Of a DNA stretch of 64,000 nt, positions 1-58,947 are shown in pieces; the first letter of the stretch is position 1; the number at the start of each line of letters is the position of its first letter. Location of the stretch: the NCBI GenBank assembly GCA_051744805.1, contig JBNJDK010000001.1, positions 32,572 to 96,571 of the forward strand, read 5' to 3'. Source of the stretch: Bacillota bacterium (lineage in GTDB: Bacteria; Bacillota; Halanaerobiia; Halanaerobiales; DATFIM01). The notes under the pieces are model-generated. The model was not told where the DNA came from. It saw only the letters and a list, made by a program, of their open reading frames with translations, and made no database searches. The translations under genes were made by a program, and so were the position numbers.

Positions 1-744
1 ACTTGTACTACAGTTAATCTCAGCTTCATCCACACCATAAATATCAAGTAAATCTCTTTGTAATTCCTCATTTAATCCTAATTTACCTATTTCATTTATA
101 AGTTGTTCTTTACTTCCTTTTTTACCTAAATAACCATTAACACGGGCAACTGCTGTAGAGTCTATAAATTCACTTATAGAATAACGCTCTAAATAATAAT
201 TTTTAAATTTTTTATGCTGTTGCAAATAATATTTTTGATGATAAGTTTCCGCAAGAAAAAATTCTTTATATTGATTGATTTCTGTTTTTATTTCTTTTCC
301 TGAATCATTTTCCAGTTCTCTTTTTACCTCAAGTATAGTATTAAATTGTTCTTCATTATGATAAAGAATCATTGAATAATACTGTCTTGAATAAGATTGT
401 CTGTAAGGATTATGATTTTCAAAAAAATACTCTAAAAGTTCTTTATATGATATTAAATTAGGATTATAATCAACTTCTACTACTTCAGTATGATCTCCTA
501 TATTTTGATAAGTTGGACTTTCGCTTACGCCACCGGCGTAACCTACTCGGGTTCTTACTACCCCTTTTAATGCACCAAAGGCAGCATCCGAGCCCCAAAA
601 TCATCCAAGTCCAAAGGTAGCTGTTTCAATTTCATCAACATTTTTCATTTCTTTATCTAATTCTGTTTGATACTCAGCATTTACTGAATCTAAAGGTATC
701 AAAATGAGTAGACTTAAAATTGTAAATACTATTATATAATTCAC
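1..744 (-). CDS. msrA: Peptide-methionine (S)-S-oxide reductase MsrA, predicted selenoprotein (in-frame UGA at the catalytic position); the 3' end runs off the window
   Basis: Hand translation of the minus strand. GTG at 744..742 follows an AGAGGAGGG RBS. The product reads MNYIIVFTILSLLILIPLDSVNAEYQ...ETATFGLG-[TGA 603..601]-FWGSDAAFGALKGVVRTRVGYAGG...GDHTEVVEVDYNP...AETYHQKYYLQ. This is the MsrA GCFWG signature with TGA in place of the Cys codon. The frame stays open to position 1. The gene is missing from the ORF track because the TGA splits it. Confidence 0.8.
570..587 (-). promoter_or_regulatory. Candidate SECIS-like hairpin 13 nt downstream of the msrA UGA
   Basis: The mRNA AUGCUGCCUUUGGUGCAU can pair AUGC/GCAU and GCC/GGU with one bulged U, placing GGU near the apex. 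The spacing from the UGA fits bacterial SECIS expectations. It was found by eye only, and the stem is short. Confidence 0.3.
601..603 (-). other. In-frame UGA, candidate selenocysteine codon of msrA
   Basis: TGA (plus-strand tca) sits between the GLG and FWGSDA codons, exactly where MsrA enzymes carry the catalytic Cys. Neighbouring genes use TGA as an ordinary stop (e.g. 848..850), so this is not a recoded genome. Confidence 0.6.
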
Positions 745-847
745 TTGCAATCCCTCCTCTGTTTCTTATTTGTTTTACTATCTATATACTACTAATAATA
801 GTTATTAATTGCAAGTAAATTGTTAACAAATTTATATAATTATTTAA

Positions 848-1339
848 TCACTCACTACCTTCTCCATGGGCATAGCGGCTAGCTGCTGCTGAAGCAATTC
901 CGGCAACTAAATCATCTAAAAAAGTATTAACTTCTCCATCTTTTTTTGTATCAAGCTCTTTTATTATTCCCATTTTTTCTTTATCTAAATAGCCATAACT
1001 GGTCAATCCAATTGTTCCATACAAATTTACAATTGATAGTGGAATAATCTCATCAATACCATATAAAGCTTCATCTGTATCAATTATACTTTGTAATGGT
1101 TCAGGAAGCTGTTCTTTTTCAGCTAATTCATCCAATGCCACTCCAGTTAAAATTGCATGAGCAACTTCTCTCTTTTTTAAAACTGCATCCACATGCTCAT
1201 AACAAATTTCAAAACTTATATCAGGATCATAAGGTTCCTGTAGTTTCATAACTAAGCTGGCAATATCTTCTATCTTCACTCCTCTTTCATTTAATATTTC
1301 AATAGATTTTTCATATAATTTTTTCATTGAATCTTTCAC
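848..1339 (-). CDS. Phosphatidylglycerophosphatase A-like protein (PgpA/YutG family)
   Basis: 163 aa. It resembles B. subtilis YutG along its length (KREVAHAILTGVALDELAEKEQLPEPLQSIIDTDEALYGIDEI). Confidence 0.7.
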   Translation of the reverse strand: MKDSMKKLYEKSIEILNERGVKIEDIASLVMKLQEPYDPDISFEICYEHVDAVLKKREVAHAILTGVALDELAEKEQLPEPLQSIIDTDEALYGIDEIIPLSIVNLYGTIGLTSYGYLDKEKMGIIKELDTKKDGEVNTFLDDLVAGIASAAASRYAHGEGSE

Positions 1340-3128: not shown

Positions 3129-4373
3129 TTAAAATAAATATTCAGTCTGAAAATAAATTACATCTGACTTAGGACTTTCTCCATCTAAATTTAAATTTGC
3201 TCCACTTTTAAAATTAATACCATCTGAATAATCATAACTAATTGCAGGTTTAGCCATAAGTACTTCATCACTTAGATTATAATGAAAATTAATTTCAGTA
3301 TTTAGTTTTGTTCTTAAAAAATCTTTTTGCACTAAAAATGTCATTTGATTACTATATTCATCTTTTTTGATTTTTTTATTATAATCTAATATAACTTCCT
3401 GCATAAATTGGCTGCTAAAAAGGTATCCTTCATAATTATAATCTACACCAGCCATCCATTTAATTTCATCTTTTTCAACTACTCCTTCAGGATATTCTAT
3501 ATTTGGGTAATTCATCATTTCACTCTGAGCTATTTTAACATTAAAATACTTTCCTGAATTATAAACACCTTCTCCTCTAAATACAAATGGCCCCTGCATT
3601 GTACTTAGGCTACCTCCAACTGATGAAAGACGATGATGTTCGGGCTTTATTTCTTTATTTTGAAAATCTTTGTGAAGGGTTGGAATATCGTCCCAATGAT
3701 AAGCAGCCATAATTTCATAGTCAATATTTTGACCTAAAGACGAATATTTTAAAAATAACTCACTATTTTCAAAGTTGCTTTCTACATCTTTATTACTATT
3801 ATTTTTGGTAAAACCTTCAGGTAAATTATCTGCCAGCAATTTTGGATCCATTTTTGCAGATTTAAATTCAGGAACAAAAATTATCTCTAAGTTATCATTT
3901 TGTGGATAAAAATTTGTTTTTATAGAATTAACACTTTGCATTTGATCTGAAAATTCAACTACTGGATGAACTGTATAATCTCTTGGATTAACTATATTGG
4001 TTACAATTAATCCATCACTTTTCCCCCAGGTTAATTTTTGTTTACCTAACCGCAAATCAAATTCTGAAAAATATATTTCTAAATAACCTTCTTTTATTTC
4101 CATACTTTCTTTTTCCCTATCAAGGTCATATTTAAATGTAGGATTAATGTAGAATTTACCGAAAATATTTTCATAATTTATTTTTTTCTCATATCCAACA
4201 TCATATATCAAAGGAGCTTTAAAAGTATCTTCTTGGTCTAAATCATATACATATCTACTAATCAATGAATTTGAAACATAGGCCGCTTTTGAATTTACAG
4301 CAAAAATAGCTGTAACTAAAATTAAGCTTAAACTTATTGTTATAACTAATGATTTTTTATTTAAAATTTTCAT
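3129..4373 (-). CDS. DUF1302-like outer-membrane beta-barrel protein
   Basis: It has a signal peptide (MKILNKKSLVITISLSLILVTAIFAVNSKA), an LGKQKLTWGKSDG..NIVNPRDY motif and a C-terminal ...TEYLF. The start was moved to ATG 4373 (AGGTGA RBS); the track starts at GTG 4382. Confidence 0.65.
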   Translation of the reverse strand: MKILNKKSLVITISLSLILVTAIFAVNSKAAYVSNSLISRYVYDLDQEDTFKAPLIYDVGYEKKINYENIFGKFYINPTFKYDLDREKESMEIKEGYLEIYFSEFDLRLGKQKLTWGKSDGLIVTNIVNPRDYTVHPVVEFSDQMQSVNSIKTNFYPQNDNLEIIFVPEFKSAKMDPKLLADNLPEGFTKNNSNKDVESNFENSELFLKYSSLGQNIDYEIMAAYHWDDIPTLHKDFQNKEIKPEHHRLSSVGGSLSTMQGPFVFRGEGVYNSGKYFNVKIAQSEMMNYPNIEYPEGVVEKDEIKWMAGVDYNYEGYLFSSQFMQEVILDYNKKIKKDEYSNQMTFLVQKDFLRTKLNTEINFHYNLSDEVLMAKPAISYDYSDGINFKSGANLNLDGESPKSDVIYFQTEYLF

Positions 4374-4399
4374 AAATATCACCTTTCTTCAGTCAATAT

Positions 4400-5188
4400 T
4401 TAAATTCCCATTTTCATCTTTCTCTCGGTAAATACATCTTCTGAGATATCTGTATTATATTTTACTTCATCAAGTTCAAGAACAGTCCTGTGTTCCTTTT
4501 GAATATTATGCATCTCACTTTCTGTAATAGTCATAATTCCATCAATTTCTTTATGATCATTTACTCTTAAAGTTTTTAAATGTTCACCATCTAGATCATA
4601 AAATTCTTTTTTCAAGCCAATCCAATTATCTTTACTGACCCAGATAATAGTCTTAGAATACATATAGTCATCATTTTTAGGAATATTTTCTACAACATAA
4701 CATTCTTCCCCTTCAAAATTTTCAGTTCTTAACAATGTATGAGTATCCTCTTCTAGCTGCCTTTCTCCTAAATCATCATAGGTAAAATCAGATCCCATGA
4801 AATAATCACTTTTATTCTCTGAGGAAATTCTCTTAATTTTTCTTAACGCTGGTAAATATATCCATTGACTGTCTTCTCTTTCATCCTCATAAGTCCAGTT
4901 CATAAAAGATGTTCCTCTAATATCCTGAGGAGCTGTAAAAAACATTATCTTTTTTTCTACTTCCCCAAAATCTCTATTAAATTGTTTTAGTTCTCTCACT
5001 CGTTTATCACCAAATTTATTTATTAAAATCATTTTCATTTCTGCTTCTCTATCTTCTCCCTGTTCTCTTTCATATACTCTTTCCATTATTTCTTTTCCAT
5101 TAAGGTCTTCAGCCAGAGCATTAACCGTCAAACCTGTAACTGCTACCATAATAGTCAAAACAGTAATTAAAATCATATTTCTTTTCAT
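4400..5188 (-). CDS. LolA-like 'outer membrane lipoprotein-sorting' family protein
   Basis: It has a signal peptide (MKRNMILITVLTIMVAVTGLTVNALA) and the motif FMNWTY...WIYLPALRKIKRIS...FMGSDFTYDD. The start was moved to ATG 5188, which follows AGGAGG. This removes the overlap with the RND gene. Confidence 0.7.
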   Translation of the reverse strand: MKRNMILITVLTIMVAVTGLTVNALAEDLNGKEIMERVYEREQGEDREAEMKMILINKFGDKRVRELKQFNRDFGEVEKKIMFFTAPQDIRGTSFMNWTYEDEREDSQWIYLPALRKIKRISSENKSDYFMGSDFTYDDLGERQLEEDTHTLLRTENFEGEECYVVENIPKNDDYMYSKTIIWVSKDNWIGLKKEFYDLDGEHLKTLRVNDHKEIDGIMTITESEMHNIQKEHRTVLELDEVKYNTDISEDVFTERKMKMGI

Positions 5189-5228
5189 TTTAAAAACCTC
5201 CTGTAATTTTAATTTTATACTACTAATT

Positions 5229-7541
5229 TTATTTCTTTGAACTTTTTTCACCAAATATAAACTTCGGTTTATATCTATCAATTAAAGCAACAACTAAAGT
5301 AAGAGTTAAAACAAAACTACTAAATAGTGATAATGATACTAAATAACCTAATTCTCTATTTGGAGGAAAACTGGAGAAAATTAAAACCATAAATCCTGTA
5401 ATCACAACTATTGCATTAAATGCTATAGCTTTGCCAGAATATTTCATAGTCATCCTGGCTGCTTTAGCAGGACTAAGCCCCTGCTTTCCATACTTTTGGT
5501 ATTTTGATAAAAGGTGAATCGAATAGTCTATTCCCATACCTACAGCAATACTTGAAATCAAAGCTGTTGTCGTATTTAAAGCTATATTCAAATAACCCAT
5601 TATACCAAAATTTACAACAGCTGTTATAATAATCGGCAGACTACCTAACACCCCGGCAGAAACACTTTTATATAAAAACCCTAATAGTACTATTACTATT
5701 CCTATAGATAATAAAAGACTTTTGATCTGGCCTTCTAAAATAAGATTGGCAAATACTCTGTTCGTATAGGCAGAACCTGCATAATCAATTTCTAACTCAA
5801 AAAGAGAAGAATTCTTTTGATAATTTTCAATTTTATCCATAACTTTATTTATTAATCTTGCGTCATCATCTTTTAAATTAACCTGTAAGTTTGCCCTCCT
5901 ATAATCATAATCAATTACACTATTTAAATCATCAGGATCTCCTGACATTGAATATAATAAGAGATATTGAGCAGATAATTTTCTAGTCTTAGGAATCCTA
6001 TTATATTTTTCCTGGTCTTCATTCATAACTTTATTTATTCTACGAAGAAAGTTAGTTAAAGCTAAACTGTCACCAACTCCATCCATTTCTTCAAGTTCAT
6101 TTTGTAATTCCCAGATATCATTTAAATACTCTGGATTTTTCATTGCATCATTATTTTCTGATTTAATAACCACATTTAAATTAGTTGTACCACCAAAATG
6201 TTCATTTATAAAGTTATTAGCAACAATAATTTCTTCATCTTTCTGGAATTTACTTAAAAAACTGGAATTAATCCAGAGGCTTTGAGCACCTATTATACCT
6301 AAAACAAACAATAATATAGAAGCAATTATTATTTTCTTTTTATGAAATAATACCCAATCAGCAAATTTATAAAATTTATTACTATTTTCTTCTTTTTCAA
6401 TTTGTCTTTTGTCTTTTTTTCTTAGTTTAGGCAGCCCAATTAGTTTTAGACCGGCTGGTATAAATATTAATGAAAAAATCATTGCAGCTATTACCCCAAA
6501 AGCTGTAAATAAACCAAAATATTTTACTGCATAAACTTCAGAAGTTAATAAAGATATAAAACCAACAGCAGTTGTAATTGAAGTCATAACTACTGGTTTC
6601 CACATGTTTTTAATCATATCATTAATAACCTCAATAATATCAGCTTCTGGATCATCTTTCATTTTTTCTTTAAGATGTGTTAAAAGATGTATTCCATCAG
6701 CCACTCCAAGTGCAATTAACATAACCGGGATCATTGTAGATACAGCATAAATTGGAATTCCCAATGCTGACATCAAACCAAATGCCCAGATAGTACTAAA
6801 TAAAACAACTCCCAGGGTGAGTATAGTACTTTTAAGACTTTTGAATGTAAGGAGCAATACAATTGAAATAATCAAAATAACAAGAGGGATCATTGTTTTC
6901 ATGTCTTCAGGCATTAAGTTAGCCAGAGTACCTTCAACAACTGGTTGACCGGCAATATATAATTTTCCTGGCCCTTCTACTTTATCTAAAGCTTCTTCAA
7001 GCTGTTTATATAGCTCTACTCTATCAGCTCCCCCTTCTACTAATTCAGCCTGAATTAATGTAACTTTGTTATTTTCCGCCACCAATCTACCTGAAACCAT
7101 CTCATTTTCGCTTACCTTTTCTTTTAATTCATTAAGTTCCTTTTCACTGTCAGGAATATCTGTATAAAAAGGATTTACTTCCAGTCCCATATCAGAACCT
7201 TTAATATTATCAGCTGTTGCCAAACTTTTAATTTCATTCCCATTTATTTCATCTAAATTGGCTAATTCTTTCTGTATGTTTTCAATTTGTTTTAAAGTTT
7301 CTTTATTATATATACCATTTCTATTTTCAACTGCTACTACTACTGCATCACTAATACCAAAAAGTTCTTCATAATGATCACTTTTTTCAAAAGCCGGATG
7401 ATTTTCAGGCATATATTCATCTAAATTTGTTTCAATCCGAGCTTTATCATAAATTTGAAAAGTAAAATAACCTGTAATTGCAAGTAAAATCAATAATGTA
7501 ATAATTGGTTTTTTAAGTACAAAATCATTTATTTTTCTCAT
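5229..7541 (-). CDS. RND/MMPL-superfamily exporter (COG1033/HpnN-like)
   Basis: About 770 aa with two blocks of TM helices separated by large soluble domains. Start at ATG 7541 after GGAGGAGG. Confidence 0.85.
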   Translation of the reverse strand: MRKINDFVLKKPIITLLILLAITGYFTFQIYDKARIETNLDEYMPENHPAFEKSDHYEELFGISDAVVVAVENRNGIYNKETLKQIENIQKELANLDEINGNEIKSLATADNIKGSDMGLEVNPFYTDIPDSEKELNELKEKVSENEMVSGRLVAENNKVTLIQAELVEGGADRVELYKQLEEALDKVEGPGKLYIAGQPVVEGTLANLMPEDMKTMIPLVILIISIVLLLTFKSLKSTILTLGVVLFSTIWAFGLMSALGIPIYAVSTMIPVMLIALGVADGIHLLTHLKEKMKDDPEADIIEVINDMIKNMWKPVVMTSITTAVGFISLLTSEVYAVKYFGLFTAFGVIAAMIFSLIFIPAGLKLIGLPKLRKKDKRQIEKEENSNKFYKFADWVLFHKKKIIIASILLFVLGIIGAQSLWINSSFLSKFQKDEEIIVANNFINEHFGGTTNLNVVIKSENNDAMKNPEYLNDIWELQNELEEMDGVGDSLALTNFLRRINKVMNEDQEKYNRIPKTRKLSAQYLLLYSMSGDPDDLNSVIDYDYRRANLQVNLKDDDARLINKVMDKIENYQKNSSLFELEIDYAGSAYTNRVFANLILEGQIKSLLLSIGIVIVLLGFLYKSVSAGVLGSLPIIITAVVNFGIMGYLNIALNTTTALISSIAVGMGIDYSIHLLSKYQKYGKQGLSPAKAARMTMKYSGKAIAFNAIVVITGFMVLIFSSFPPNRELGYLVSLSLFSSFVLTLTLVVALIDRYKPKFIFGEKSSKK

Positions 7542-7560
7542 ACTATCCTCCTCCAAATAT

Positions 7561-7580
7561 ATGAATGAATAATCATTCAT
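7561..7580. promoter_or_regulatory. Palindromic operator copy 1 (ATGAATGA-N4-TCATTCAT)
   Basis: A perfect 8-4-8 inverted repeat between the tetR stop and the RND start. It shares its core with the site at 8187..8204. Confidence 0.6.
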
Positions 7581-7600: not shown

Positions 7601-8170
7601 TTACTTTAATCCATTTCTTAACAATTTAATTAATTCTTCTGGAGCTTTAATAAGCATAGATTTATCTTCTTTTTTAATCGCTTTTTCAACTATTCCCTGT
7701 ATTGACCCAAAGATAATATTTGCACTAATTTCTGGGTCATAATCTTCATTTATCTCTCCTCTTTTTATAGCAGCTTTTATTTCATTTTTCATAATTTCAG
7801 GAATCATAGTTAAATATTCATTTATATAATCAGAACCTTCTTTTTTAGGAAAATCTTTTTCTCTTACTAAAATTTCTCCAACTGCAATATTTTCTTTAAT
7901 TTCATTGAAGTGAAAATCTAAAAATATTTTCAGTTTTTCCCAAAAATCTAAGTCCTGTTGTTTTATTTTGCTTAAATTTTTCATTCTTTTTTCTAACTCA
8001 TACCTGAATATATAATCCAGAATATCTTCTTTGTTTTTAAAATAATTATAAATAGTACCAACAGCTACATTGGCTTCTTCTGCAATTTCCGCTGTTTTAG
8101 TATTATAAAATCCCTTTTTAGACATAACTTTAATAGCAGCTTCTCTTATTAATTCTTTTTTATCTTTCAT
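7601..8170 (-). CDS. TetR/AcrR-family transcriptional regulator
   Basis: 189 aa with an N-terminal TetR HTH (FYNTKTAEIAEEANVAVGTIYNYFKNKEDIL). Confidence 0.9.
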   Translation of the reverse strand: MKDKKELIREAAIKVMSKKGFYNTKTAEIAEEANVAVGTIYNYFKNKEDILDYIFRYELEKRMKNLSKIKQQDLDFWEKLKIFLDFHFNEIKENIAVGEILVREKDFPKKEGSDYINEYLTMIPEIMKNEIKAAIKRGEINEDYDPEISANIIFGSIQGIVEKAIKKEDKSMLIKAPEELIKLLRNGLK

Positions 8171-8533: not shown

Positions 8534-9088
8534 CTAATCCATTTCCGGGAAAAAGAAATTATACAGATAATATTTATGGTATTCAGAATTATTTTTTCTT
8601 TCCTTATCATCTTTATCACTTAAAAAATCATCAATAATTTCATTTAATTTTTCAGCTTCTTCATCAGTAAGATAAATTCCTGAATAACTAATTTTTATAT
8701 TTTTATAAAATTTTTCATTTTTTTCTTCTTTACTTAAATCATTTTTTTCATATAATTTATCTAAATTACTTATCAAACTATTCTCCATATGATTAATAAA
8801 TCCTCTAATCCAATCAGCATTATCTTTGTTAGTACTACTTATCAATTCTTCACCTTCAAAACTATCAGCAGCAGTTCTTACTCCATTTTCTGTCTTTTCT
8901 AATATCCCTGCTTTAACCATTTCTTTAACATAACTATTTATTAAAGATTTTTTTTCATTTAATTTTTTAACAATATAATCTAAAGAAACTGTTTCATCTT
9001 CTACAACTCCAATTATATCCATGGATATCGGATCACCAAGAAGTTCCATAATTTCACGATCAGTGATTTTCATTTTCTTTTTTTTCAT
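8534..9088 (-). CDS. Winged-helix (ArsR-like) putative transcriptional regulator
   Basis: The N-terminal REIMELLGDPISMDIIG...SLINSYVKEMVKAGILEK resembles a wHTH. The start was moved to ATG 9088 (AGGAGG RBS). The track's longer ORF would overlap the pullulanase gene. Confidence 0.55.
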   Translation of the reverse strand: MKKKKMKITDREIMELLGDPISMDIIGVVEDETVSLDYIVKKLNEKKSLINSYVKEMVKAGILEKTENGVRTAADSFEGEELISSTNKDNADWIRGFINHMENSLISNLDKLYEKNDLSKEEKNEKFYKNIKISYSGIYLTDEEAEKLNEIIDDFLSDKDDKERKNNSEYHKYYLYNFFFPEMD

Positions 9089-9119
9089 AAAAAATCCTCC
9101 TTTGAAGTTATTTTTTATT

Positions 9120-11027
9120 CTACTTAGAAACAAGAACCATAACAGAAATAGGAGGGACTTTAATATAATCATCTTCAAAAATATTAAAAACTTCATTTCC
9201 AGCCTGTTTATCATCTACAATAATTCCCCATCTTCCTTCTCCTATTTCAAAATCCCTCCATTCACGATTGGGATTATAAAGTATTACTAATTCTTCTTTC
9301 TTCTTATCAGTTTTAGAAGATTTTAGTTTATAGGCAATTGTATTAGGTGAAGATTCTAAAAACTCAAGATTCTTTCTTATTTTCTCTGCATTTTCCATTC
9401 TAAAAACTTCAAAACTATTTCTCAATTCTATTAATCCACTATAATATTTGAATGTATCATGAAATCTAGTTTTTCTTTCCCATTTTAACATATTAATATA
9501 ATCTCCGGCATTATAACTATTTGAGTTTCCAAATTTAGTACGCAAAAATTCTTCTCCTCCATATAAAAAAGGAACCCCTAAAGAAGTAAAAATTATTGCC
9601 TGGGCCATTTTATCCATCTTAATCCTAATATACCTTGGATCTTCTCCATTAGTTTTTTTAAGTTTATCCCAGAGTGTAAGATTATCATGAGCACTAACAT
9701 AATTGATAGTCTCACTGGGACTTACTGTAAAATCATGAATTTCTTCATTATAATAAATTCCACCAACTATTCCCTTTTTAACTCCTTCACTGAAACCTTC
9801 TTTTCCATTAACAAAGCCTTTACTATTGCCATCAGTATCACCTTTAATAGCATCACGAAAATGATCATTAAAAGCAGAAATATTCATTTTCTTTTGAGCT
9901 CCTTTTAACATTTGTTCATCATGATGGAGTTGAGGTGGTAAAGCAGACCAGGGTTCACCATATAAAAGAATTGATGAATCCATTTCATGTAATTCATCTT
10001 CAGCTTTATCCATAGTTTCTTTATCAATTATTCTCATTAAATCAAATCTAAACCCATCAATATGATATTCTTCTGCCCAATAACATAGTGAGTCTATAAT
10101 AAATTTTCTAGCCATTGGTTTTTCAGTAGCAAATTCATTACCTACTCCAGAGCCATTGGCTAAATTATGTTCATCTTCATGTTTTCTATAAAAATAACCT
10201 GGTGCTGTTTTTTCAAAATTAGATTCTTCAGTATAATAGGTATGATTATATACTACATCCATAATTACACCTATTCCTTCATCATGAAGAGCCTTAACCA
10301 TCTTTTTAAATTCAATAATTCTTGTTTCATCAGAGGGATCACTGGCATAAGAACCTTCAGGTACATTATAATAATAAGGATCATAACCCCAGTTATAGTC
10401 GTCCGGCCAGGTATCATCTACTGTAGCAAAATCAAAGACTGGTAAAAGGTGAACATGGGTAATTCCTAAATTTTTCAAATGATCAATTCCTGTATTAAAC
10501 CCATATCGATTTTTGGTACCTTTTTCAGTAAAAGCTAAATAATCACCTTTTAATTCAATTCCTGATTCTGAAGAACTGGAAAAATCTTTGACATGGACTT
10601 CATATATTACAGCATCTGTTGGCTTTTCTAATTTTACCCTCTTATCATTTTCCCAGCCTTCAGGATTAGTTTTAGAAAGATCAACTATATACCCTAACTT
10701 ACTATTAGTACCAACTGCTCTTGCGTAAGGATCAATCACTTCATAACTAAATTCACCATAATCAATTATAAATAAATAATAATTACCAGAAAGATTTTCA
10801 GAAACAAAAGTAGTCCAACATCCATTTTCATCTTTTTTTAAATTAAATTTATCTTTTATTGATTTATTATTCTCATCTTCAAAAATTAAAACTTCAACTT
10901 TATTAGCAGCCGGGGCCCAGATTTTAAAAGAAGTAGAGCTATCCTCTGCAATAACACCTAAATCGTCTTCATCACAATAAAAATTATCATAGTTAAAATC
11001 CAAATCCATTTTTTTATCTAAACTCAT
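9120..11027 (-). CDS. Type I pullulanase / debranching enzyme (GH13), no signal peptide
   Basis: 635 aa with YNWGYDP, GVIMDVVYNH, GFRFDLM and YVSAHDN motifs. Confidence 0.9.
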   Translation of the reverse strand: MSLDKKMDLDFNYDNFYCDEDDLGVIAEDSSTSFKIWAPAANKVEVLIFEDENNKSIKDKFNLKKDENGCWTTFVSENLSGNYYLFIIDYGEFSYEVIDPYARAVGTNSKLGYIVDLSKTNPEGWENDKRVKLEKPTDAVIYEVHVKDFSSSSESGIELKGDYLAFTEKGTKNRYGFNTGIDHLKNLGITHVHLLPVFDFATVDDTWPDDYNWGYDPYYYNVPEGSYASDPSDETRIIEFKKMVKALHDEGIGVIMDVVYNHTYYTEESNFEKTAPGYFYRKHEDEHNLANGSGVGNEFATEKPMARKFIIDSLCYWAEEYHIDGFRFDLMRIIDKETMDKAEDELHEMDSSILLYGEPWSALPPQLHHDEQMLKGAQKKMNISAFNDHFRDAIKGDTDGNSKGFVNGKEGFSEGVKKGIVGGIYYNEEIHDFTVSPSETINYVSAHDNLTLWDKLKKTNGEDPRYIRIKMDKMAQAIIFTSLGVPFLYGGEEFLRTKFGNSNSYNAGDYINMLKWERKTRFHDTFKYYSGLIELRNSFEVFRMENAEKIRKNLEFLESSPNTIAYKLKSSKTDKKKEELVILYNPNREWRDFEIGEGRWGIIVDDKQAGNEVFNIFEDDYIKVPPISVMVLVSK

Positions 11028-11074
11028 AATAGAGAATTATCCTTCCTTTAGTCTAATTTTATAATATATTGTTT

Positions 11075-12514
11075 TTATAGACTTTTATATAATTTTATAT
11101 ATTCCTGTGCTGAATGTTTCCAACTAAAATCTTTTTCCATAGCTTTTTTCATTAATTTTTTCCAAATATCATTTTTTCTATAAAAAGATATGGCTCTTCT
11201 AATCGTATACATTAAATCATGAGCATTAAAGTTTGCAAAAGAAAAACCAAATCCACTATCTTCAAATTCATTATAAGGTTCAACCGTATCTTTTAATCCC
11301 CCAGTTTCTTTTACAATTGGAATAGTACCATAACGCATACTAATTATTTGACTTAAACCACATGGTTCAAATCTGGAAGGCATCAAAAACATATCAAGAC
11401 CTGCATACATTTTTTGTGCCAATTTAGCATCATATTCTATTTTCACCCCTACTTTATCTGGATATTTCTGAGCCAGATTTCTAAAATATTCTTCATATCT
11501 TTGCTGACCGGTACCTAATAAAACAAACTGCAATTTTTCCTTATTAAGAGTTTCTTCAATGATTTCTGTGACTAGATCAATACCTTTTTGTTCTACAAGT
11601 CTGCTTACAATTCCTATCAAAGGAATTTCTTCATTAACAGCTAACCCAAATTCTTTTTGCAGTTCTTTTTTATTTTTATATTTATTTTCTAAATTATTTT
11701 TATCATAATTATAATAAATATCAGAATCAGTTTTAGGATCAAATTTATCATAACTTATACCATTAACAATTCCTTTTAAATCTCTACTTCTCATTCTTAA
11801 AGCATAATCAAGACCTTCGCCAAAATATGATGTTTTTATTTCTTCAGCATAAGTTTCACTTACAGTATTAATTTTATCAGCATAGAAAATACCTGCTTTC
11901 ATAAAATTCACAAGCCCATCATGACGGATATTTCCTGAATTCCAGTGCCAGTAATTCACTCCAAGTACATCTCCAATGATTTTAGGATCAAATTGTCCCT
12001 GGTAGCGCAAATTATGAATAGTATAAAGAGTTTTTATATCTTTATAAAAATCATATTTGCGATAATTATCATCTAATAATAGTGCTAAAATACCTGTCTG
12101 CCAATCATTAAAATGAATTATATCTGGTTTAAAACCAATTTCAGGCAACATTTCTAAAACTGCTCTATTAAAAAATGTAAATTGTACCTCTTTATCACCA
12201 TTTTCATATAATGTAGGTCTATTAAAATAAAACTTATTATCTATAAAATAAGTAGGAACTCCCTGATTTGAAAGTTTATTTACTCCTACGTATTCATTTC
12301 TCCAAACTACATTAGTTTTAAAATCAGTAATATGTTCTAACTCTTTTTTATATTTATCATCCATTTTGAGATATTCAGGTAGTACCACTCGAACATCATG
12401 ACCCTGTTTGCGCAATGCTTGGGGTAATGAACCTGAAACATCTGCCAGACCACCTGTTTTAACAAATGGATCTGCTTCAGAAGTAACAAATAAAATTTTT
12501 AACTTTTCAGACAT
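11075..12514 (-). CDS. glgA: Glycogen synthase (ADP-glucose type)
   Basis: 479 aa with an N-terminal KILFVTSEADPFVKTGGLADV and a C-terminal GT5 pattern (PSRFEPCGLSQI). Confidence 0.95.
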   Translation of the reverse strand: MSEKLKILFVTSEADPFVKTGGLADVSGSLPQALRKQGHDVRVVLPEYLKMDDKYKKELEHITDFKTNVVWRNEYVGVNKLSNQGVPTYFIDNKFYFNRPTLYENGDKEVQFTFFNRAVLEMLPEIGFKPDIIHFNDWQTGILALLLDDNYRKYDFYKDIKTLYTIHNLRYQGQFDPKIIGDVLGVNYWHWNSGNIRHDGLVNFMKAGIFYADKINTVSETYAEEIKTSYFGEGLDYALRMRSRDLKGIVNGISYDKFDPKTDSDIYYNYDKNNLENKYKNKKELQKEFGLAVNEEIPLIGIVSRLVEQKGIDLVTEIIEETLNKEKLQFVLLGTGQQRYEEYFRNLAQKYPDKVGVKIEYDAKLAQKMYAGLDMFLMPSRFEPCGLSQIISMRYGTIPIVKETGGLKDTVEPYNEFEDSGFGFSFANFNAHDLMYTIRRAISFYRKNDIWKKLMKKAMEKDFSWKHSAQEYIKLYKSL

Positions 12515-12637
12515 CTTTAAACCCTCCCATCTAAGAAAATTAAAAAAGGTTCTTTTTAATTATATCATTACTTTTAAAAAAAATCCAACTTTGTACTAAG
12601 ATTACTGGGCTAAGTAATAAATAAATATTCATAAATC

Positions 12638-12666
12638 TAGAAATAAATACAAGCATATGTTATAAT
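12638..12666 (+). promoter_or_regulatory. Extended -10 promoter for glgBCD-glgP
   Basis: TAGAAA, 17 nt (ending TGT), TATAAT. It lies about 65 nt upstream of the glgB ATG. Confidence 0.45.
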
Positions 12667-12729
12667 TATATAAACAAATACTGTATTTCTTTAATGGGTT
12701 AAATAACTTTAGTCTTCTGGAGGTAAATT

Positions 12730-14637
12730 ATGAGTGAAAATTATCCAAATGAGTATAATCGCTATTTATTTCATAAAGGGGAAAATTATCATAGTTATAA
12801 ATTTCTTGGTAATCATATTTCTAATAAAAATGATAAAAAAGGAATCAGATTCTCAGTCTGGGCACCAAACGCTAGTAAAGTTAGTGTGATTGGAGATTTT
12901 AACAACTGGCAAAGTGATGTACATCAAATGAAAAAATTAGAAAAATCAGGAATATGGACTAAATTCATCAATGAAGCTAAAACTGGTGACCTTTATAAAT
13001 ATAAAATAATTGGTCCAAATGGTGAAGTTCGAATAAAAGCTGATCCCTATGCTAATTATGCTGAAAAAAAGCCAGAAACTGCTTCACGAATTTTTAATAA
13101 CAATAAATATGAATGGAATGACCACAAATGGCAAAAGAAAAAAGAATCCTTTGACCCCCATAAAGAACCAATTTTAATTTATGAGTTACACCTTGGCTCC
13201 TGGAAAAGAGATGAAAATAATGATTATCTCAATTATCGTGAAATAGCTGATAAACTTATAGATTATATTCTTAAAATGGGTTATACTCATATTGAACTAC
13301 TACCAATTACAGAACATCCTTTTGATGGTTCCTGGGGATATCAGACAACTGGTTATTATGCCGTTACCAGTCGTTATGGAGATCCTGATGATTTTAAATA
13401 TTTAATAGATAAATGTCATCAAAATGATATAGGTGTCATTATAGATTGGGTTCCAGGTCATTTTTGTAAAGATGATCATGGATTACGTATTTTTGATGGA
13501 ACTCCCCTTTATGAAAGCGAAGATCCTAGAAAAGCCGAAAATATACAATGGGATACTCTTAATTTTGATTTTGCCCAACCAGAAGTCTGGAGTTTCCTTA
13601 TTTCTAATGCTATTTATTGGCTAAAAGAATTTCATATTGATGGTATTAGAGCTGATGCAGTAAGTAATATGATATATTTAGATTATCAAAAAAAAGATGG
13701 TCAATGGGCTGCAAATAAATATGGCGGAAATGAAAATTTAGAAGCAATAAATTTTTTGCAGAAATTAAATGAAGTTGTTTTCAAAAATTATCCTGGATCA
13801 TTAATGATAGCAGAAGAATCAAGTGCCTGGCCTGGTGTTACTTCACCAACTTATAGTGAGGGACTGGGATTTAATTTCAAATGGAATATGGGTTGGATGA
13901 ATGACACCTTAGAATATATGGAAAAAGACCCACTATTCCGCAAAGGAATTCATGATAAATTAACCTTTTCTATCATGTATACCTATTCAGAAAATTACAT
14001 ACTCCCTCTCTCCCACGATGAAGTAGTTCATGGTAAAAAATCCTTACTAAATAAAATGCCAGGAGATTATTGGGAAAAATTTTCTAATTTACGTCTTCTA
14101 TTCGGTTATATGTTATCTCATCCTGGCAAAAATTTATTATTTATGGGAGGAGAATTCGGTCAATTCATAGAATGGAATTATGAACAGGAATTAGATTGGT
14201 CTTTATTAGAATATGATAAACATAAAAAAATGAATGATTATGTTAAAGAATTAAATGAATTTTATCTAAATGAAAATGCTCTCTGGCTACTTGATCATAA
14301 ATCAGAGGGGTTTGAATGGGTGGAGGCAAATGATAACAAACGTAGTATTATAAGTTTTCTAAGATTTCCATATGATCAGGAAAATCATTTGCTTATTATT
14401 TGCAATTTTACTCCTGTTTTCAGAGAAAATTATCAAGTTGGTATTCCAAGTTATAATGAATATGAAGTAGTTTTTAATAGTGATTTAGAAAAATATGGAG
14501 GTAAAGGTGTTTCTATTCAAAATACTTATTCACCTTCTAAAATATCCTGTAATTCTAAACCATATTCATTAAAAATTGATCTTCCTCCACTCTCTACTTT
14601 ATATTTAAAAGTCAACAAAAAAATTAAGGAGGGTTAA
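12730..14637 (+). CDS. glgB: 1,4-alpha-glucan branching enzyme
   Basis: 635 aa with a GH13 branching-enzyme pattern ([32 protein letters not shown]). Confidence 0.95.
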
Positions 14638-14638
14638 A

Positions 14639-15814
14639 ATGGCAAAAAAAGAAATGGTAGCAATGCTTCTTGCAGGTGGTAAAGGTACACGCCTTGGAGT
14701 TTTAACAAATAATCTAGCTAAACCTGCTGTACCTTTTGGTGCAGAATTTAGATTAATTGATTTTCCTTTAAGTAATTGTTCCAATTCAGGTATAAATACT
14801 GTAGGTATTCTTACTCAATATGAACCACTTATTCTTAATTCGTATATAGGTAATGGTAGTTCCTGGGAACTCGATAGAAATGATGGAGGGGTAACAGTTC
14901 TTCCACCTTATTTACATGATGGGGGTGGAGGTTGGTATAAAGGAACAGCAGATGCTGTGTATCATAATATCAACTATATAGACCGCTATGATCCTGAATA
15001 TGTTCTAGTTTTATCTGGAGATCACATTTACAAAATGGATTATTCAAAAATGCTCGATTTTCACAAAGAAAAAGATGCAGCAGCCTCTTTAGCTGTAATA
15101 GAAGTTCCCTGGGAAGAAACTCATCGTTTTGGAATTATGAATACAAATGAAAAAAAACAAATAATTGAATTCCAGGAAAAACCTGAAAAAGCCAAAAATA
15201 ATTTAGCTTCTATGGGAATATATATATTTGATTGGCCAACTTTAAAAGAATATTTAATTGAGGATAGTAGAAATCCAGAATCCTCAGGTGATTTTGGGAA
15301 AAATATAATACCAGCTATGATCAATGATAAACATAGTGTTTATGCATATGAATTTGAAGGTTACTGGATGGATGTAGGTACAATCGAAAGTTATTGGAAA
15401 GCTCATATGGATTTAATCCATAAAGATGCCGGTCTTGACCTTTATGACCGTGATTGGATTATATCCAGCTTAAATCCAAATCAACCTCCTCTTTACATTT
15501 CTGAAGATGCAGAGGTTAACCATTCTTTAATTAACAAAGGAAGTGAAATTGAAGGTACTGTTAAGAATTCAGTAATATTCTTTGGCTCTTCAGTAGGCAA
15601 AAATTCTATTGTTGAAGATTCAGTAATTTTACCTAATACTAGAATTGGGGAAGGATGCTATATAAATCGATCAATTATCTGTCATAATGTAAATATTGAA
15701 GATAATTGTAATGTTGGAGCTGATAATTTAATTAATCCTGATATAACTGTAATTGCAGATAATATGACTATTTCTAGAGGAGCAAATATAGAGAATGGTT
15801 CGGTTGTCGAATAA
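14639..15814 (+). CDS. glgC: Glucose-1-phosphate adenylyltransferase
   Basis: 391 aa with [23 protein letters not shown] and a left-handed beta-helix C-terminus. Confidence 0.95.
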
Positions 15815-15855
15815 TCATACTGCTATTTTTAGAAAATGGAAGGAGGAAATTATAA

Positions 15856-16968
15856 ATGAAAAATGTAATGGGTATAGTAAATGATATTCAGGAAGAAGAA
15901 GTTCTAAAAGATTTAACCAAACATCGTTCACTCGCTTCACTACCTTTTGGGTGTAGATATCGTCTTATTGACTTTCCTTTATCCAATATGGTGAATTCAG
16001 GAATAATAAATGTTGGTATATTTCTCGAAGATAAATTTAGATCTCTACTTGATCATATAGGTCCTGGAAAGGCCTGGGATCTGGACCGTAAAAGAGATGG
16101 ACTCTTTTTATTACCTGCCAGTCAACGTAATAACAAAAATAGAATTTATAAAGGTGATATAGAAAGCTTAGAAGCAAATTTAGATTATTTACACCGAAGC
16201 AGTCAGGATTATGTAGTAATTACAAGTTCAAAAGTAATCTGTAATATGGATTACAATGATGCTTTTGATTTTCATCTTGACTCAGACGCTGATATAACTG
16301 CTATCTATAAACAGGTTTCTTCTCCAAAACAGAGTAAAAATCAAACTGTTTTAGAAACTGACAGTGATGATAGAGTTATAGAAATGAAAGTAAGTCCAGA
16401 AAGGCAGGGTTACAACAAAATTTCTCTTGAAAAATTTATTATGAAAAAAGATTTATTAATAGATATAATAGATGATTGTTATTCTACCGGTAGATGGGAT
16501 TTTATAAAAGATGGGATTATTAAAAACATTGATAAATATAAAATTAAAGCCTATCCCTATAAAGGTTATATAGCTAATATTAATTCTGTAAATAGTTATT
16601 TTCATAAAAGTCTTGAACTTTTAAAACCTGATAATCGAAAAGATATGTTCCACAAACATCAAGTTTTTACCAAACCAAAAGATGAAGCTCCTACAAAATT
16701 TAGTGATCGTGGACAGGCTAAAAATATAATTGCTGCAAATGGATGTATAGTTGAAGGAGATGTAGAAAATAGTATACTCTTTAGAGGAGTAACTATTAAA
16801 AGAGGTGCTCATGTTAGAAATAGTATTATAATGCAAAAAACAACCATTGGCAGAAATGCCCAGCTTGAAAATGTAATTACAGACAAAAATGCAAGAATCA
16901 AAGAAGGAACTGAACTTAAAGGAAGTAGAAATTTTCCAGTCATAATTGAAAAAAATGCGAAAGTTTAA
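15856..16968 (+). CDS. glgD: Glucose-1-phosphate adenylyltransferase subunit GlgD
   Basis: 370 aa. It is a GlgC paralog lacking the GGxGxR loop ([20 protein letters not shown]) and sits directly after glgC, as in Firmicutes. Confidence 0.9.
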   Translation: MKNVMGIVNDIQEEEVLKDLTKHRSLASLPFGCRYRLIDFPLSNMVNSGIINVGIFLEDKFRSLLDHIGPGKAWDLDRKRDGLFLLPASQRNNKNRIYKGDIESLEANLDYLHRSSQDYVVITSSKVICNMDYNDAFDFHLDSDADITAIYKQVSSPKQSKNQTVLETDSDDRVIEMKVSPERQGYNKISLEKFIMKKDLLIDIIDDCYSTGRWDFIKDGIIKNIDKYKIKAYPYKGYIANINSVNSYFHKSLELLKPDNRKDMFHKHQVFTKPKDEAPTKFSDRGQAKNIIAANGCIVEGDVENSILFRGVTIKRGAHVRNSIIMQKTTIGRNAQLENVITDKNARIKEGTELKGSRNFPVIIEKNAKV

Positions 16969-16983
16969 GGAGAGTGCGTTTAT

Positions 16984-18600
16984 ATGAAAAACATGAAAAA
17001 CAAAAATCCAAATGTAGCTTATTTTTGTATGGAATTTGGGCTTGCCAAAAATCTTAGGATTTATGCAGGTGGTTTAGGAATCTTAGCTGGGGATATACTA
17101 AAAACAGCTAATGAATGTTATTATCCTTTGATCGGTATTGGTCTTCTCTGGAAAAAAGGTTATACTAAACAATTAATTGGGGATAATAATTACCCTTATG
17201 ATTCTTATCCTACCTATGAAGAAATATATGATGAATTAGAAGATACTGGTGTTGTGGTAGAAGTACCCATTAAAGAACAAACTATATTTACTAAAGTCTG
17301 GAAATTAGAAGGTTATGGAAACACACCTCTTTATTTACTTGATACAAATTTACCTCAAAATGATGAGCAACAAATTATTACTGATAAACTTTATATTGGT
17401 TCTGAAGAAAAAAGAGTAGCTCAAGAGATGATTTTAGGTATTGGTGGTATGAAAGCTATTAGAGAACTTGATTTAAATATAGATGTTTTTCACTTTAATG
17501 AAGGTCATGCTGTACTTGCAGGAACAGAATTAATAAAAGAAAAAATGAAAAAAAATATTGATTTTGATAAAGCCTGGGAAAAAACTAAAAATGAAATTGT
17601 TTTTACAACTCATACTCCTGTAAAAGAAGGCAATGAATCACATAGCCTTGAGTTACTCGGAGAATTAGGTGCTTTTAATGGTCTTAACTTTAATCAAATG
17701 GAAAAATTAGGTGGTAATCCCTTTAATATGACAGTAGCCGGTTTGCGCCTTTCAAGAACTGCTAATGCAGTCTCTCAACTCCATGGTGAAACTGCCAATG
17801 AAATGTGGGGAGATGTCAAAAATAAAGCTCCTATTAAAGCTATAACTAATGGTGTAAATCGTAGAACATGGGTTGATCATAGTATAATAACAAATTATGA
17901 TGACAATAAAAAATTATGGGAAATACATCAAAAACACAAACAGGAATTGATTGATTATATTAAAAGAAAAAATGCTGTTAGTTTAAGAAATGATAGATTA
18001 ACTATAGGATTTGCCCGTCGAGCAGCTAATTATAAAAGACCTGACCTTATTTTCCGTAAACCTGAAATCATTGGAGAATATTTAGATAATAATAAAATTC
18101 AAATTATATTCTCTGGAAAGGCTCACCCTGAAGATGATAATGGTAAGGAAATGGTTGCAAACTTAGTTCGGATGTCTCAAAAATATCCTGAATCTGTCAC
18201 ATTTATTGAAGATTATGATATCGAAGTAGGAAAATTGTTAACTAAAGGTGTAGATGTCTGGCTTAATAATCCAAGAAAACCACAGGAAGCAAGTGGTACT
18301 TCTGGTATGAAAGCAGCTATGAATGGAGTTTTGAATTTAAGTATTCTTGATGGTTGGTGGCCAGAAATATGTGAACATGGAATAAATGGCTGGCAGTTTG
18401 GAGATGGCTATGTGGGTGAAAATCAGGATCAACATGATCTTGATTCTCTCTATAACGTTCTTTTAGAAGAAGTTGTTCCTACTTATTATGAAAATAAAGA
18501 AAAATGGATAGAAATGATGCAGGCAAGTATCGACTCAACTTATGATCGTTTTTCAGCCAAAAATATGCTGGAAAAATATTATGAAAAACTTTATAGTTAA
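16984..18600 (+). CDS. glgP: Alpha-glucan (glycogen/maltodextrin) phosphorylase, short GT35 type
   Basis: 538 aa with FCMEFGL, GGLGILAGD and the PLP-site EASGTSGMKAAMNG. Confidence 0.9.
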   Translation: MKNMKNKNPNVAYFCMEFGLAKNLRIYAGGLGILAGDILKTANECYYPLIGIGLLWKKGYTKQLIGDNNYPYDSYPTYEEIYDELEDTGVVVEVPIKEQTIFTKVWKLEGYGNTPLYLLDTNLPQNDEQQIITDKLYIGSEEKRVAQEMILGIGGMKAIRELDLNIDVFHFNEGHAVLAGTELIKEKMKKNIDFDKAWEKTKNEIVFTTHTPVKEGNESHSLELLGELGAFNGLNFNQMEKLGGNPFNMTVAGLRLSRTANAVSQLHGETANEMWGDVKNKAPIKAITNGVNRRTWVDHSIITNYDDNKKLWEIHQKHKQELIDYIKRKNAVSLRNDRLTIGFARRAANYKRPDLIFRKPEIIGEYLDNNKIQIIFSGKAHPEDDNGKEMVANLVRMSQKYPESVTFIEDYDIEVGKLLTKGVDVWLNNPRKPQEASGTSGMKAAMNGVLNLSILDGWWPEICEHGINGWQFGDGYVGENQDQHDLDSLYNVLLEEVVPTYYENKEKWIEMMQASIDSTYDRFSAKNMLEKYYEKLYS

Positions 18601-34540: not shown

Positions 34541-35680
34541 TTAATCGAGTTCTACCTGTTTACAAAGGTCTGTAAACTCTTGAGCTATTTTATATCTTCT
34601 CTTTCTTATTTTAAGCTCTTCCTCAGGAGTTTCAGCTTCAAAAAATTTCTGTTCTAAATCTTCATTTTCATCTGCAAGATTACATAATCTATCACAAAGC
34701 TCTATTACAGAAACTCCTCGTATTTTCCCTTTTTTATTATGCCCAATAGCCATAATAGGTCTTCCCCACATCCCCGGGCCAGCCATTGCATCACTCATAT
34801 GCATAACACCTGTACCCCCAGGATGAGTATGAACAATTGTAGTATTTGTAGGAATAATTTCAGTATAAGCTTCTCTTAATGATATATCACTAATATCATA
34901 ATAACTGGAAGCAAGCAATCTCGGTGGAATATAACCCATTCCTCCTACAACTAAGTCACTTGCTTGCACTACATGACCATTTTCTTTTATTTCACCAAAA
35001 GCTGCTACTTCACGTCCCTGTTCAATATTAATAGATTTATCAACAAGTTTTTGGGCAAATTTTTCATCAATACTTTTAACATCAATCCGGGGTATTTCCC
35101 AGCATTTTTCTTTATGAAAAGTTTCCTTATAATTTTCTTTTTCTAGAGAAACAATTGGTAATTCTCCAGATATATGAAGATATTTTAACTTAATTTGTGT
35201 AGAAATCTTTAAGGCCTCTCTTTCAGCTTCCATAGACATAGCTGTTAAAGAATCCAATTGTGCTTTTTCAGATTTAGTAGCCAGATTAAAATTCTTCTTT
35301 TCAGGATATAATATTCCTACTCCAACTGCTGAACCATTTTTTACTCCAACTTTTACAACTGGTAAATTAAAAATATTAATTCCACCAGTATTTACAATAA
35401 TACCTGATTCACCAGGATCAGTAGAAATAATAACTGCATTCTCAGGTAATTGATTTATCATTTCTAATAAGGAACAGTAATTTTTTTGGGATATTTCTGA
35501 AAGTAATAACCTATAAGGCAAACCTGAAAGTCCACCATTAATAATTTTATTATAACTGGAAATATATCCTTTTTCATCGAGATAGGCAATAGTCCCCACT
35601 GAACGACCTTCCCCTAATTCATTACTTCTCTCTACTAGTCTATTAACAATTTCCTCAGCTATTCCTTTTACCTCCTGCAA
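34541..35680 (-). CDS. Uncharacterised protein with an internally duplicated domain; the C-terminal copy carries an HTHP(x9)SD motif
   Basis: 379 aa, TTG start after GGGGTG. The N half (..NGGLSGLPYRLL..AVIISTDPGESG..) aligns to the C half (..VGGMGYIPPRLL..TTIVHTHPGGTG..). I recognise no family. Confidence 0.6.
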   Translation of the reverse strand: MQEVKGIAEEIVNRLVERSNELGEGRSVGTIAYLDEKGYISSYNKIINGGLSGLPYRLLLSEISQKNYCSLLEMINQLPENAVIISTDPGESGIIVNTGGINIFNLPVVKVGVKNGSAVGVGILYPEKKNFNLATKSEKAQLDSLTAMSMEAEREALKISTQIKLKYLHISGELPIVSLEKENYKETFHKEKCWEIPRIDVKSIDEKFAQKLVDKSINIEQGREVAAFGEIKENGHVVQASDLVVGGMGYIPPRLLASSYYDISDISLREAYTEIIPTNTTIVHTHPGGTGVMHMSDAMAGPGMWGRPIMAIGHNKKGKIRGVSVIELCDRLCNLADENEDLEQKFFEAETPEEELKIRKRRYKIAQEFTDLCKQVELD

Positions 35681-54456: not shown

Positions 54457-55000
54457 TAAAATCATCCTGATTTTGTAGATAATATAGTAAGCCAACAATA
54501 GTTTTACCATCTACTATTTTTTCATTTTTTATTTTTTCCATTATTTCAGCTGGGTCTAAAAGTGCATGTTTGATAAACTCTCCAGGATCAAGCCCATCTC
54601 CAGGTTCAAATTGCAAGTCTTTGGCTAAATATAAATGCAATTTTTCATTTGAATAACCTGGACTGGTATAAAAGGAAAATAATTTTTTAACTTCTTTAGG
54701 TCTATATCCTGTTTCTTCCCATAACTCACGAGCAGCACATTCAGCAGGCATTTCACCATCATCAAGTTTACCAGCTGGTAGTTCTAACAACATTTTTTCT
54801 ACTGCTTTTCTATATTGCTTAACCATTAAAATTTTATTATCTTCATTTTGAGCAATAATTGTTACCCCTCCACTATGTTCTATTACTTCTCTGTAAGACT
54901 CATTTTCATCCGGTAAAAGAACTCTATCTTTCCTTAATTTCAAAACAGATCCATCATAAATATCTTTGCTTTTGATGGTTTTTTCTTCATAATCTGACAT
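54443..55000 (-). CDS. nudF: NUDIX hydrolase, ADP-ribose pyrophosphatase type
   Basis: 185 aa with the Nudix box GKLDDGEMPAECAARELWEETG. Confidence 0.85.
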   Translation of the reverse strand: MSDYEEKTIKSKDIYDGSVLKLRKDRVLLPDENESYREVIEHSGGVTIIAQNEDNKILMVKQYRKAVEKMLLELPAGKLDDGEMPAECAARELWEETGYRPKEVKKLFSFYTSPGYSNEKLHLYLAKDLQFEPGDGLDPGEFIKHALLDPAEIMEKIKNEKIVDGKTIVGLLYYLQNQDDFNEIE

Positions 55001-56794: not shown

Positions 56795-56795
56795 A

Positions 56796-58606: not shown

Positions 58607-58634
58607 CTTAAAACCTCCCTTTTATTGGTATAAT

Positions 58635-58853
58635 CTATTCTTCTTTATATACAGTAATTACTACATCTGGACACATTTGAGCACACAATCCACAGCTTAT
58701 ACATTCATCCTGGTCTGTAACTTCAGCAGGGTGATAACCATGGCTATTTATTCTATCTGCCATTTTTATAATATCTTTAGGGCAGACAGTTGTACAAAGT
58801 TCACAGCCTTTACATCTTTCTTCATTAAATACTACTTTTTTTACTTTTTCCAT
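58635..58853 (-). CDS. 4Fe-4S ferredoxin-type delta subunit
   Basis: 72 aa with two CxxCxxCxxxCP motifs (CKGCELCTTVCP, CISCGLCAQMCP). Confidence 0.9.
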   Translation of the reverse strand: MEKVKKVVFNEERCKGCELCTTVCPKDIIKMADRINSHGYHPAEVTDQDECISCGLCAQMCPDVVITVYKEE

Positions 58854-58947
58854 CTAATTAACCCCCTTTATCTTTCTTGAAGTTTCTACCAACAGTAATT
58901 GTATCATATTCTTTAGACCAAAACCAGTTTTTAAAAAATCACAGGAA

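Follow-up and report, generated by a model that had tools for sequence, protein, structure and literature searches.

The closest described relative of the protein discussed here is CoMsrA, the methionine sulfoxide reductase A (MsrA) of Clostridium (Alkaliphilus) oremlandii OhILAs (PDB entries 4LWJ, 4LWK, 4LWL, 4LWM and 4U66), a 1-Cys type enzyme that natively contains selenocysteine (Sec) and whose Sec form is reported to have 20 times the activity of the Cys version; it depends on a helical domain, and it is recycled by glutaredoxin and not by thioredoxin (PMC4333827). A 2026 review lists MsrA with the active site G-U-F-W-G (U being Sec) among the prokaryotic selenoprotein families, with an experimental reference (PMC13188914). 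The same review gives a consensus for the bacterial SECIS element (the bSECIS model) with an apical loop of 3–9 nt, an upper stem of 4–16 bp, a G in the first two loop positions, a spacing of 16–37 nt and a minimum free energy (MFE) of ≤−7.5, and it states that some SECIS elements lie outside this model (PMC13188914). Fusions of MsrA and MsrB that are extracytoplasmic, such as Neisseria PilB, are cited in the reference list of PMC6316033.

The window analysed here is a 64,000-nucleotide (64-kb) stretch of Bacillota DNA, the first 744 positions of which carry an msrA-type gene on the minus strand. Translation of that strand from the GTG at 744..742 to base 1 gives a frame of 248 codons whose single stop is a TGA at 603..601, in the context ...DEIETATFGLG-TGA-FWGSDAAFGALKGVVRTRVGYAGG; 47 open codons lie upstream of this TGA and 200 lie downstream of it, up to the window edge. 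A Shine-Dalgarno-like AGGAGGG occupies 752..758 on the same strand, with its GGAGG core (757..753) 8 nt from the GTG start codon (742..744), and both the motif and the GTG are identical in the two closest orthologues, L001 and L002 (below). The sequence-only reading that preceded this analysis had described an in-frame TGA on the catalytic Cys codon of the MsrA motif G-C-F-W-G, flanked by 47 codons that begin at GTG 744 behind an AGGAGGG ribosome binding site and by 200 codons on the other side, and on rereading all of these coordinates are correct. When Cys is put at the TGA, the Pfam family PF01625 (PMSR) matches residues 41–181 with E = 2.6e-41, which delimits the MsrA catalytic domain (202..624, minus strand), and the NCBIfam model TIGR00401 (msrA) scores 122.4 bits against a cut-off of 108.1. 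Because both matches span the TGA, the MsrA similarity runs in one frame on either side of it, as had been claimed, and the translation and these matches together bear out its position on the catalytic residue. The TGA (601..603, minus strand) is residue 48 and is the predicted Sec codon at the catalytic position of G-U-F-W-G. We put the probability at about 0.9 that this UGA specifies Sec as the MsrA nucleophile of an MsrA–MsrB fusion protein, and that it is decoded by way of a hairpin at +11..+59 (counted from the U of the UGA). The predicted Sec-containing MsrA is supported by conservation of the TGA, by purifying selection on both sides of it, by a hairpin that is specific to the TGA forms, by the placement of the protein in the Sec-MsrA subfamily, and by the use of TGA as a normal stop elsewhere; each of these is taken up below.

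The gene had been read simply as msrA, and although its MsrA domain is confirmed, it is apparently not a stand-alone msrA gene: comparison with L001 and L002, whose frames are 405 codons long, indicates an apparent signal peptide followed by MsrA and a fused MsrB. Positions 1..744 (minus strand) are the 5′ part of this predicted msrA-msrB fusion gene, 248 of about 405 codons, and the gene runs beyond the window start. The two orthologues have 157 codons more than the window part, and these include a SelR domain, GWPSF and RYCINS. The bifunctional MsrB/A model NF004042 gives only a partial match to the window part (132 bits, where the cut-off is 330), since the window sequence ends at codon 248, before the MsrB (SelR, PF01641) domain. 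Residues 1–23 (676..744, minus strand) form a predicted N-terminal signal peptide, recognized by eye, in which a 15-residue hydrophobic core (IIVFTILSLLILIPL) is followed by V-N-A and then E; its n-region has no basic residue, and an equivalent hydrophobic N-terminus is present in all homologues of the fusion family. Export of the fusion protein would be in keeping with such a leader. Behind the catalytic domain, residues from about 182 to 235 (40..201, minus strand) align with the C-terminal helical domain of the C. oremlandii-type selenoprotein MsrA in 4LWJ and 4U66, the domain described in PMC4333827; these two CoMsrA structures are the best PDB matches (E about 4e-50), and they cover query residues 38–235, with the chain end at 203–204. 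The Cys-containing linker between MsrA and MsrB starts at 1..12 (minus strand) with C245, the first residue of a C-S-T-S-C motif that is complete in L001 and L002; the second linker Cys and the MsrB domain fall outside the window, and relatives have from one to three Cys at this site. Aside from the Sec position the MsrA part has no Cys, and the only other Cys residues of the full orthologue are those of the linker C-S-T-S-C and of RYCINS in MsrB, which points to the linker thiols as probable participants in recycling of the enzyme.

How does this protein compare with the known ones? Like CoMsrA, it belongs to the same MsrA subfamily, has its (predicted) Sec at G-U-F-W-G in an MsrA part without other Cys (1-Cys type), carries the extra C-terminal helical domain, and is encoded by a gene in which the UGA is followed by a hairpin in the coding region. 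Unlike it, CoMsrA, 209 residues long, stands alone and relies on glutaredoxin for its recycling (PMC4333827), and the alignment shows no N-terminal leader in it, whereas on the window side there are a signal-peptide-like leader, a Cys-containing linker and, as seen in the orthologues, a fused MsrB. Two loci from Alkaliphilus metagenome-assembled genomes (L043 and L073) lie outside the set with the window-type hairpin. The Cys-type MsrA/MsrB proteins of Halanaerobium (among them those of H. hydrogeniformans, H. saccharolyticum and H. congolense) have the same architecture, with about 400 aa and 50–57% identity (many Halanaerobium relatives returned by the protein search lie at 50–59%), and share with the window clade a hydrophobic N-terminus, the helical domain, the Cys linker and an MsrB with RYCINS; they differ at the catalytic codon, which is TGT, and no conserved hairpin follows it. 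Neisseria PilB is a fused MsrA and MsrB with an export signal, presumably for the repair of envelope proteins; its catalysts are Cys, and a thioredoxin-like domain at its N-terminus serves in recycling. In common with PilB, the window protein has the predicted MsrA/MsrB fusion and the apparent export signal, but it lacks the thioredoxin domain and has a predicted Sec in its MsrA. Our literature search found no publication that joins MsrAB, selenocysteine and a signal peptide.

A change of TGT or TGC to TGA requires just one third-position substitution, and the window comes from a metagenome-assembled genome, so is the TGA simply a nonsense mutation in a pseudogene or a miscalled base in the assembly? 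A protein search returned two 405-aa proteins, P0001 (94% identity) and P0002 (90%), both with PMSR and SelR (MsrB) domains, and their contigs, L001 and L002, derive from two different ENA metagenome samples. In a DNA alignment of these two with the window, TGA is present at the identical codon in both, while the Gly codon that precedes it is GGA, GGC or GGT across the three, and the 405 codons of L001 and L002 contain no other disruption. Upstream of the TGA, the window and L001 differ synonymously at 9 codons and non-synonymously at 5, and beyond the hairpin the corresponding figures are 23 and 8; because synonymous change dominates on each side, both halves of the gene are translated and under coding constraint. 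Nine more distant members of the fusion clade also have the TGA (L005 and L007, which came from a genome scan, and L163–L169), which makes a fusion-clade set of 12 TGA loci, the window, L001 and L002 included, and the hairpin that is specific to the TGA forms accompanies the codon (below). A pseudogene or an assembly error is thus highly improbable, and the judgement that a frameshift or random nonsense mutation was unlikely is strengthened by the recurrence of the TGA in L001 and L002, which were assembled independently, and in nine other relatives. Nor did the close relatives with the TGA prove to carry the additional disruptions by which a pseudogene would have been recognized, since the L001 and L002 frames are intact throughout.

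In the seven contigs L163–L169, the gene calls consist of a 46–54-aa ORF that ends in the TGA and then an N-terminally truncated ORF (the truncated matches are 342–356 aa long and begin MPGVVRTRV...), a split typical of the way in which selenoprotein genes are mis-called; together with the W that P0001 and P0002 carry at the TGA position (below), these split calls agree with the statement that ORF callers miss Sec-MsrA genes. More broadly, of 154 related MsrA loci retrieved from public genome and metagenome data, 128 have TGA at this codon (60 of 75 genome loci and 68 of 79 metagenome loci), and the named genome loci, the only ones with organism names, include Thermodesulfobacteriota, Nitrospirota, Chloroflexota, Syntrophomonadaceae, Alkaliphilus, Clostridium, Tindallia and others. 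Sec-for-Cys forms of MsrA had been called rare in bacteria, but that is not so for this subfamily, in which, judging from these codons, predicted Sec is the rule and not a rarity. Alignment with Cys-type relatives puts the TGA on the catalytic Cys column, as had been expected, with G-TGA-FWG in the window against G-C-FWG in the Halanaerobium and haloarchaeal homologues. The best MsrA match among species-representative genomes is 59% identical, and a scan of JGI metagenomes gave no relative closer than 57%.

The TGA could also be read as an ordinary sense codon in this organism, for Trp under translation table 4 or for Gly under table 25; P0001 and P0002 do have a W at the TGA position, and the genome is AT-rich (window GC of 29.2%). 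However, TGA ends 8 of the 51 long stop-to-stop frames in the 64 kb (TAA ends 34 and TAG 9). Two TGAs passed our read-through filter, the msrA codon and one at 63423..63421 that has just 27 codons after it, and the msrA TGA is the only one in the 64 kb with long open frames on both sides. The Pfam match of the PgpA-like gene upstream of msrA reaches profile position 140 of 141 and stops together with the gene, at a TGA (850..848), and read-through there adds 21 AT-rich codons; the PgpA-like protein is 184 aa in L001 and 163 aa in the window because the table-4 call runs these 21 codons past the TGA. Under table 11 the window is tiled by 55 ORFs of 100 aa or more with ordinary Pfam matches, and in none of these 55 was TGA seen to fall on a conserved Trp or Gly column of a housekeeping protein. 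In addition, an MsrA with Trp or Gly in place of its catalytic Cys would be inactive. Genetic code 4 was rejected on the TGA stop statistics and the end of the PgpA-like gene, and the W in P0001 and P0002 is spurious, a product of calling genes with table 4 on short AT-rich contigs (the table-4 calls are located at L001:465-1019 and 1057-2274 and at L002:249-1466). A reassigned TGA is therefore the least probable of the alternatives considered here, extremely so, and the pseudogene, sequencing-error and alternative-code readings are all effectively excluded. Because TGA ordinarily stops frames and table-11 ORFs tile the window, the msrA codon is better explained by site-specific recoding than by a changed code. 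The sequence-only reading had argued the same from the stop of the neighbouring gene (848..850), and the frame counts, the PgpA Pfam end and the solitary position of the msrA TGA between long open frames all uphold it.

The remainder of the window holds genes of several kinds. On the minus strand, 3129..7580 contains DUF1302-like, LolA-like/DUF1329-like and MMPL/RND-type genes which, with a TetR regulator at 7601..8170 (NCBI accession MGM0436666.1), resemble an outer-membrane-associated export system; the presence of the LolA-like, DUF1302/DUF1329-like and MMPL genes near msrAB fits a diderm cell envelope of the Halanaerobiales type. A 226-aa ORF at 8534..9214 (minus strand) has no Pfam match and overlaps the 3′ end of a pullulanase-type gene (9120..11027) by ~95 nt, and it could be spurious or an unannotated small gene. 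A glycogen metabolism cluster occupies both strands of 9120..18600 and is made up of the pullulanase-type debranching enzyme, a starch/glycogen synthase, a branching enzyme, two glucose-1-phosphate adenylyltransferase-like genes and a phosphorylase. Three ORFs of 379–437 aa that stand among housekeeping genes (34541..35680, 46169..47482 and 53269..54510, minus strand) have no Pfam match at E ≤ 1e-5. The region 56258..63160 (minus strand) encodes three 2-oxoacid:ferredoxin oxidoreductase subunits, an acetate/butyrate-kinase-like protein, two tandem Glu/Leu/Phe/Val dehydrogenase paralogues and a phosphate acetyl/butyryl transferase, and is likely an amino-acid fermentation cluster; a sigma-54 activator fragment lies upstream of it at the window end.

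If the UGA is decoded as Sec, a signal for its recoding would be expected in the mRNA, and a SECIS-like hairpin was found at +11..+59 (545..593, minus strand) by RNAfold (MFE of −18.7 kcal/mol) and comparative pairing. It has a basal stem of 6 bp (593..588 with 550..545), an upper stem of 10 bp (586..577 with 565..556) and an 11-nt apical loop, GGUGCAUUAAA (576..566). Taken alone, the window hairpin is not exceptional (z = −1.45 for 64 nt and −2.12 for 91 nt). Across the 12 TGA loci of the fusion clade, 92.8% of the cells are paired, a share that reaches no more than 52.6% when the partners are slid; compensatory U-A to C-G changes are present at pairs 13-57 and 18-48, and there is a further compensatory change at 30-36. 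On the shared structure these 12 loci average −14.1 kcal/mol and the nine TGT loci of the same fusion family +5.0 kcal/mol, and of the 15 core pairs 13–15 are formed in the TGA loci as against 8–13 in the TGT loci, which encode a near-identical peptide (FWGPDASFGALEGVVRT) without the hairpin. Among the window, L001 and L002, 2 of the 20 codons over the hairpin vary compared with 86 of 228 elsewhere (p = 0.014), and both of the variable hairpin codons fall in the apical loop; the depletion of purely synonymous variation over the hairpin, with three sequences only, is not significant (p = 0.16). By these comparisons the stem-loop directly 3′ of the UGA is evidently conserved and specific to the TGA forms.

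Like the E. coli fdhF-type SECIS and the bSECIS model, the window element is a coding-region hairpin directly 3′ of the UGA, with 24 nt to the apical loop and GG at the start of the loop. Its spacing (24 nt), upper stem (10 bp), GG loop start and MFE (−10.8 for the upper stem or −18.7) are within the bSECIS model, but its 11-nt apical loop is larger than the 3–9 nt of that model; in sister sequences it is reduced to 3 nt and frequently lacks a G. At gathering thresholds Rfam gave no match in the 64-kb window, which means that no curated family reached its threshold. Most other Sec-MsrA loci have a compact hairpin, with a 5-bp stem at +18..+32 and a (G/A)GUU(C/U) loop at +23..+27, and this was found in 114 of the 126 TGA loci outside the window clade (among L008–L162), 93 of them with all five pairs and 21 with four. 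The compact hairpin loops are GGUUC, AGUUU or AGUUC, and the stem covaries (CUCCC/GGGAG, UGCCC/GGGCA and AUCCC/GGGAU). A compact fdhF-like hairpin was ruled out in the window clade, where 0–3 of the five pairs form. Unlike the bSECIS model and most Sec-MsrA genes, the window element is thus 49 nt long with a loop of 11 nt and is not compact, and the pairing patterns indicate that the Sec-MsrA family carries two SECIS designs. The compact one would make a good covariance model with which to find Sec-MsrA genes.

The window contains no tRNA at all, and the tRNA scan and Pfam searches found no selA, selB, selD or tRNA-Sec in its 64 kb. A phmmer search for selD beside msrA in the fetched loci, with an approximate E. 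coli SelD query, gave no matches, a result that bears on these loci and not on whole genomes. An AIRS-domain gene downstream of msrAB in one clade locus (L167:2589-3401) was considered as selD and rejected, as it has neither a SelD-like N-terminal motif nor an upstream in-frame TGA. Exact matches place the window proteins in a metagenome-assembled Bacillota genome (proteins MGM04366xx) whose closest named relatives are metagenome-assembled genomes of Halanaerobiales bacteria. Halanaerobium praevalens is reported to have a tRNA-Sec and 5 predicted selenoprotein genes (PMC5330540), and we infer that the present genome also has Sec machinery. It might be argued instead that the lineage once used Sec and that this organism has since lost the machinery, so that the UGA terminates translation, or is read through at a low level by a near-cognate Trp or Cys tRNA, and the gene is a recent relic. 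Such a loss would agree with the lack of Sec machinery genes and of tRNA-Sec within the 64-kb window, and the replacement of Sec by Cys in the Halanaerobium branch suggests that Sec use is labile in this group. However, the window, L001 and L002, diverged as they are (90–94% identity), have kept both the hairpin and the TGA in a frame that is still intact and has changed mostly at synonymous positions, and the hairpin itself hardly varies among the three. In a relic one would expect frameshifts, further stops or reversions of TGA to TGY to build up. Loss of Sec decoding in this organism is accordingly a small possibility, at odds of roughly the one-in-twenty kind, and Sec is presumably inserted at residue 48.

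With UGA decoded as Sec, the enzyme would work as follows: the hairpin, which begins 7 nt past the UGA (+11..+59, 593..545), would bind SelB-GTP-Sec-tRNA(Sec), and Sec would be inserted in place of termination to give the active site G-U-F-W-G. The selenol would then attack methionine-S-sulfoxide and be converted to a selenenic acid, and this would be resolved by a thiol, either that of a linker cysteine or that of an external reductant. The absence of other Cys from the MsrA part would favour a role for the linker thiols (above).

In a neighbour-joining tree of 161 MsrA domains (made without bootstrap) the fusion family forms one clade, and within it the Cys-type Halanaerobium sequences (loci L003, L004, L006, L083–L087 and L093) nest between two Sec-type groups, both of which have the long hairpin. 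This is suggestive of an ancestral Sec form, with later replacement of Sec by Cys and loss of the hairpin in Halanaerobium. The pieces may be joined into a fuller account, in which a diderm, Halanaerobiales-like member of the Bacillota exports a Sec-containing MsrA–MsrB to its periplasm, a lineage-specific long SECIS has replaced the compact one, a reductant acting through the linker Cys residues recycles the enzyme outside the cytoplasm, and the Cys forms of Halanaerobium are secondary reversions; we offer this combination tentatively, as its odds of being right in every part fall somewhat below even.

The gene belongs to a family of Sec-containing MsrAs that is already known, and what is known of Sec decoding and of MsrA chemistry is unchanged by it; its particularities, the MsrB fusion, the apparent export signal and the clade-specific SECIS hairpin, are noteworthy but modest. 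For annotation it should be treated as a functional selenoprotein gene, neither a pseudogene nor a split gene, and public pipelines mishandle this clade, giving either a 46–54-aa ORF plus a truncated ORF or an active-site Trp through the use of table 4. The Sec-MsrA family gains a fused form with an apparent signal peptide, and the occurrence of two apparent SECIS designs in one enzyme family would be useful for training SECIS predictors and for studies of the co-evolution of SelB and SECIS.
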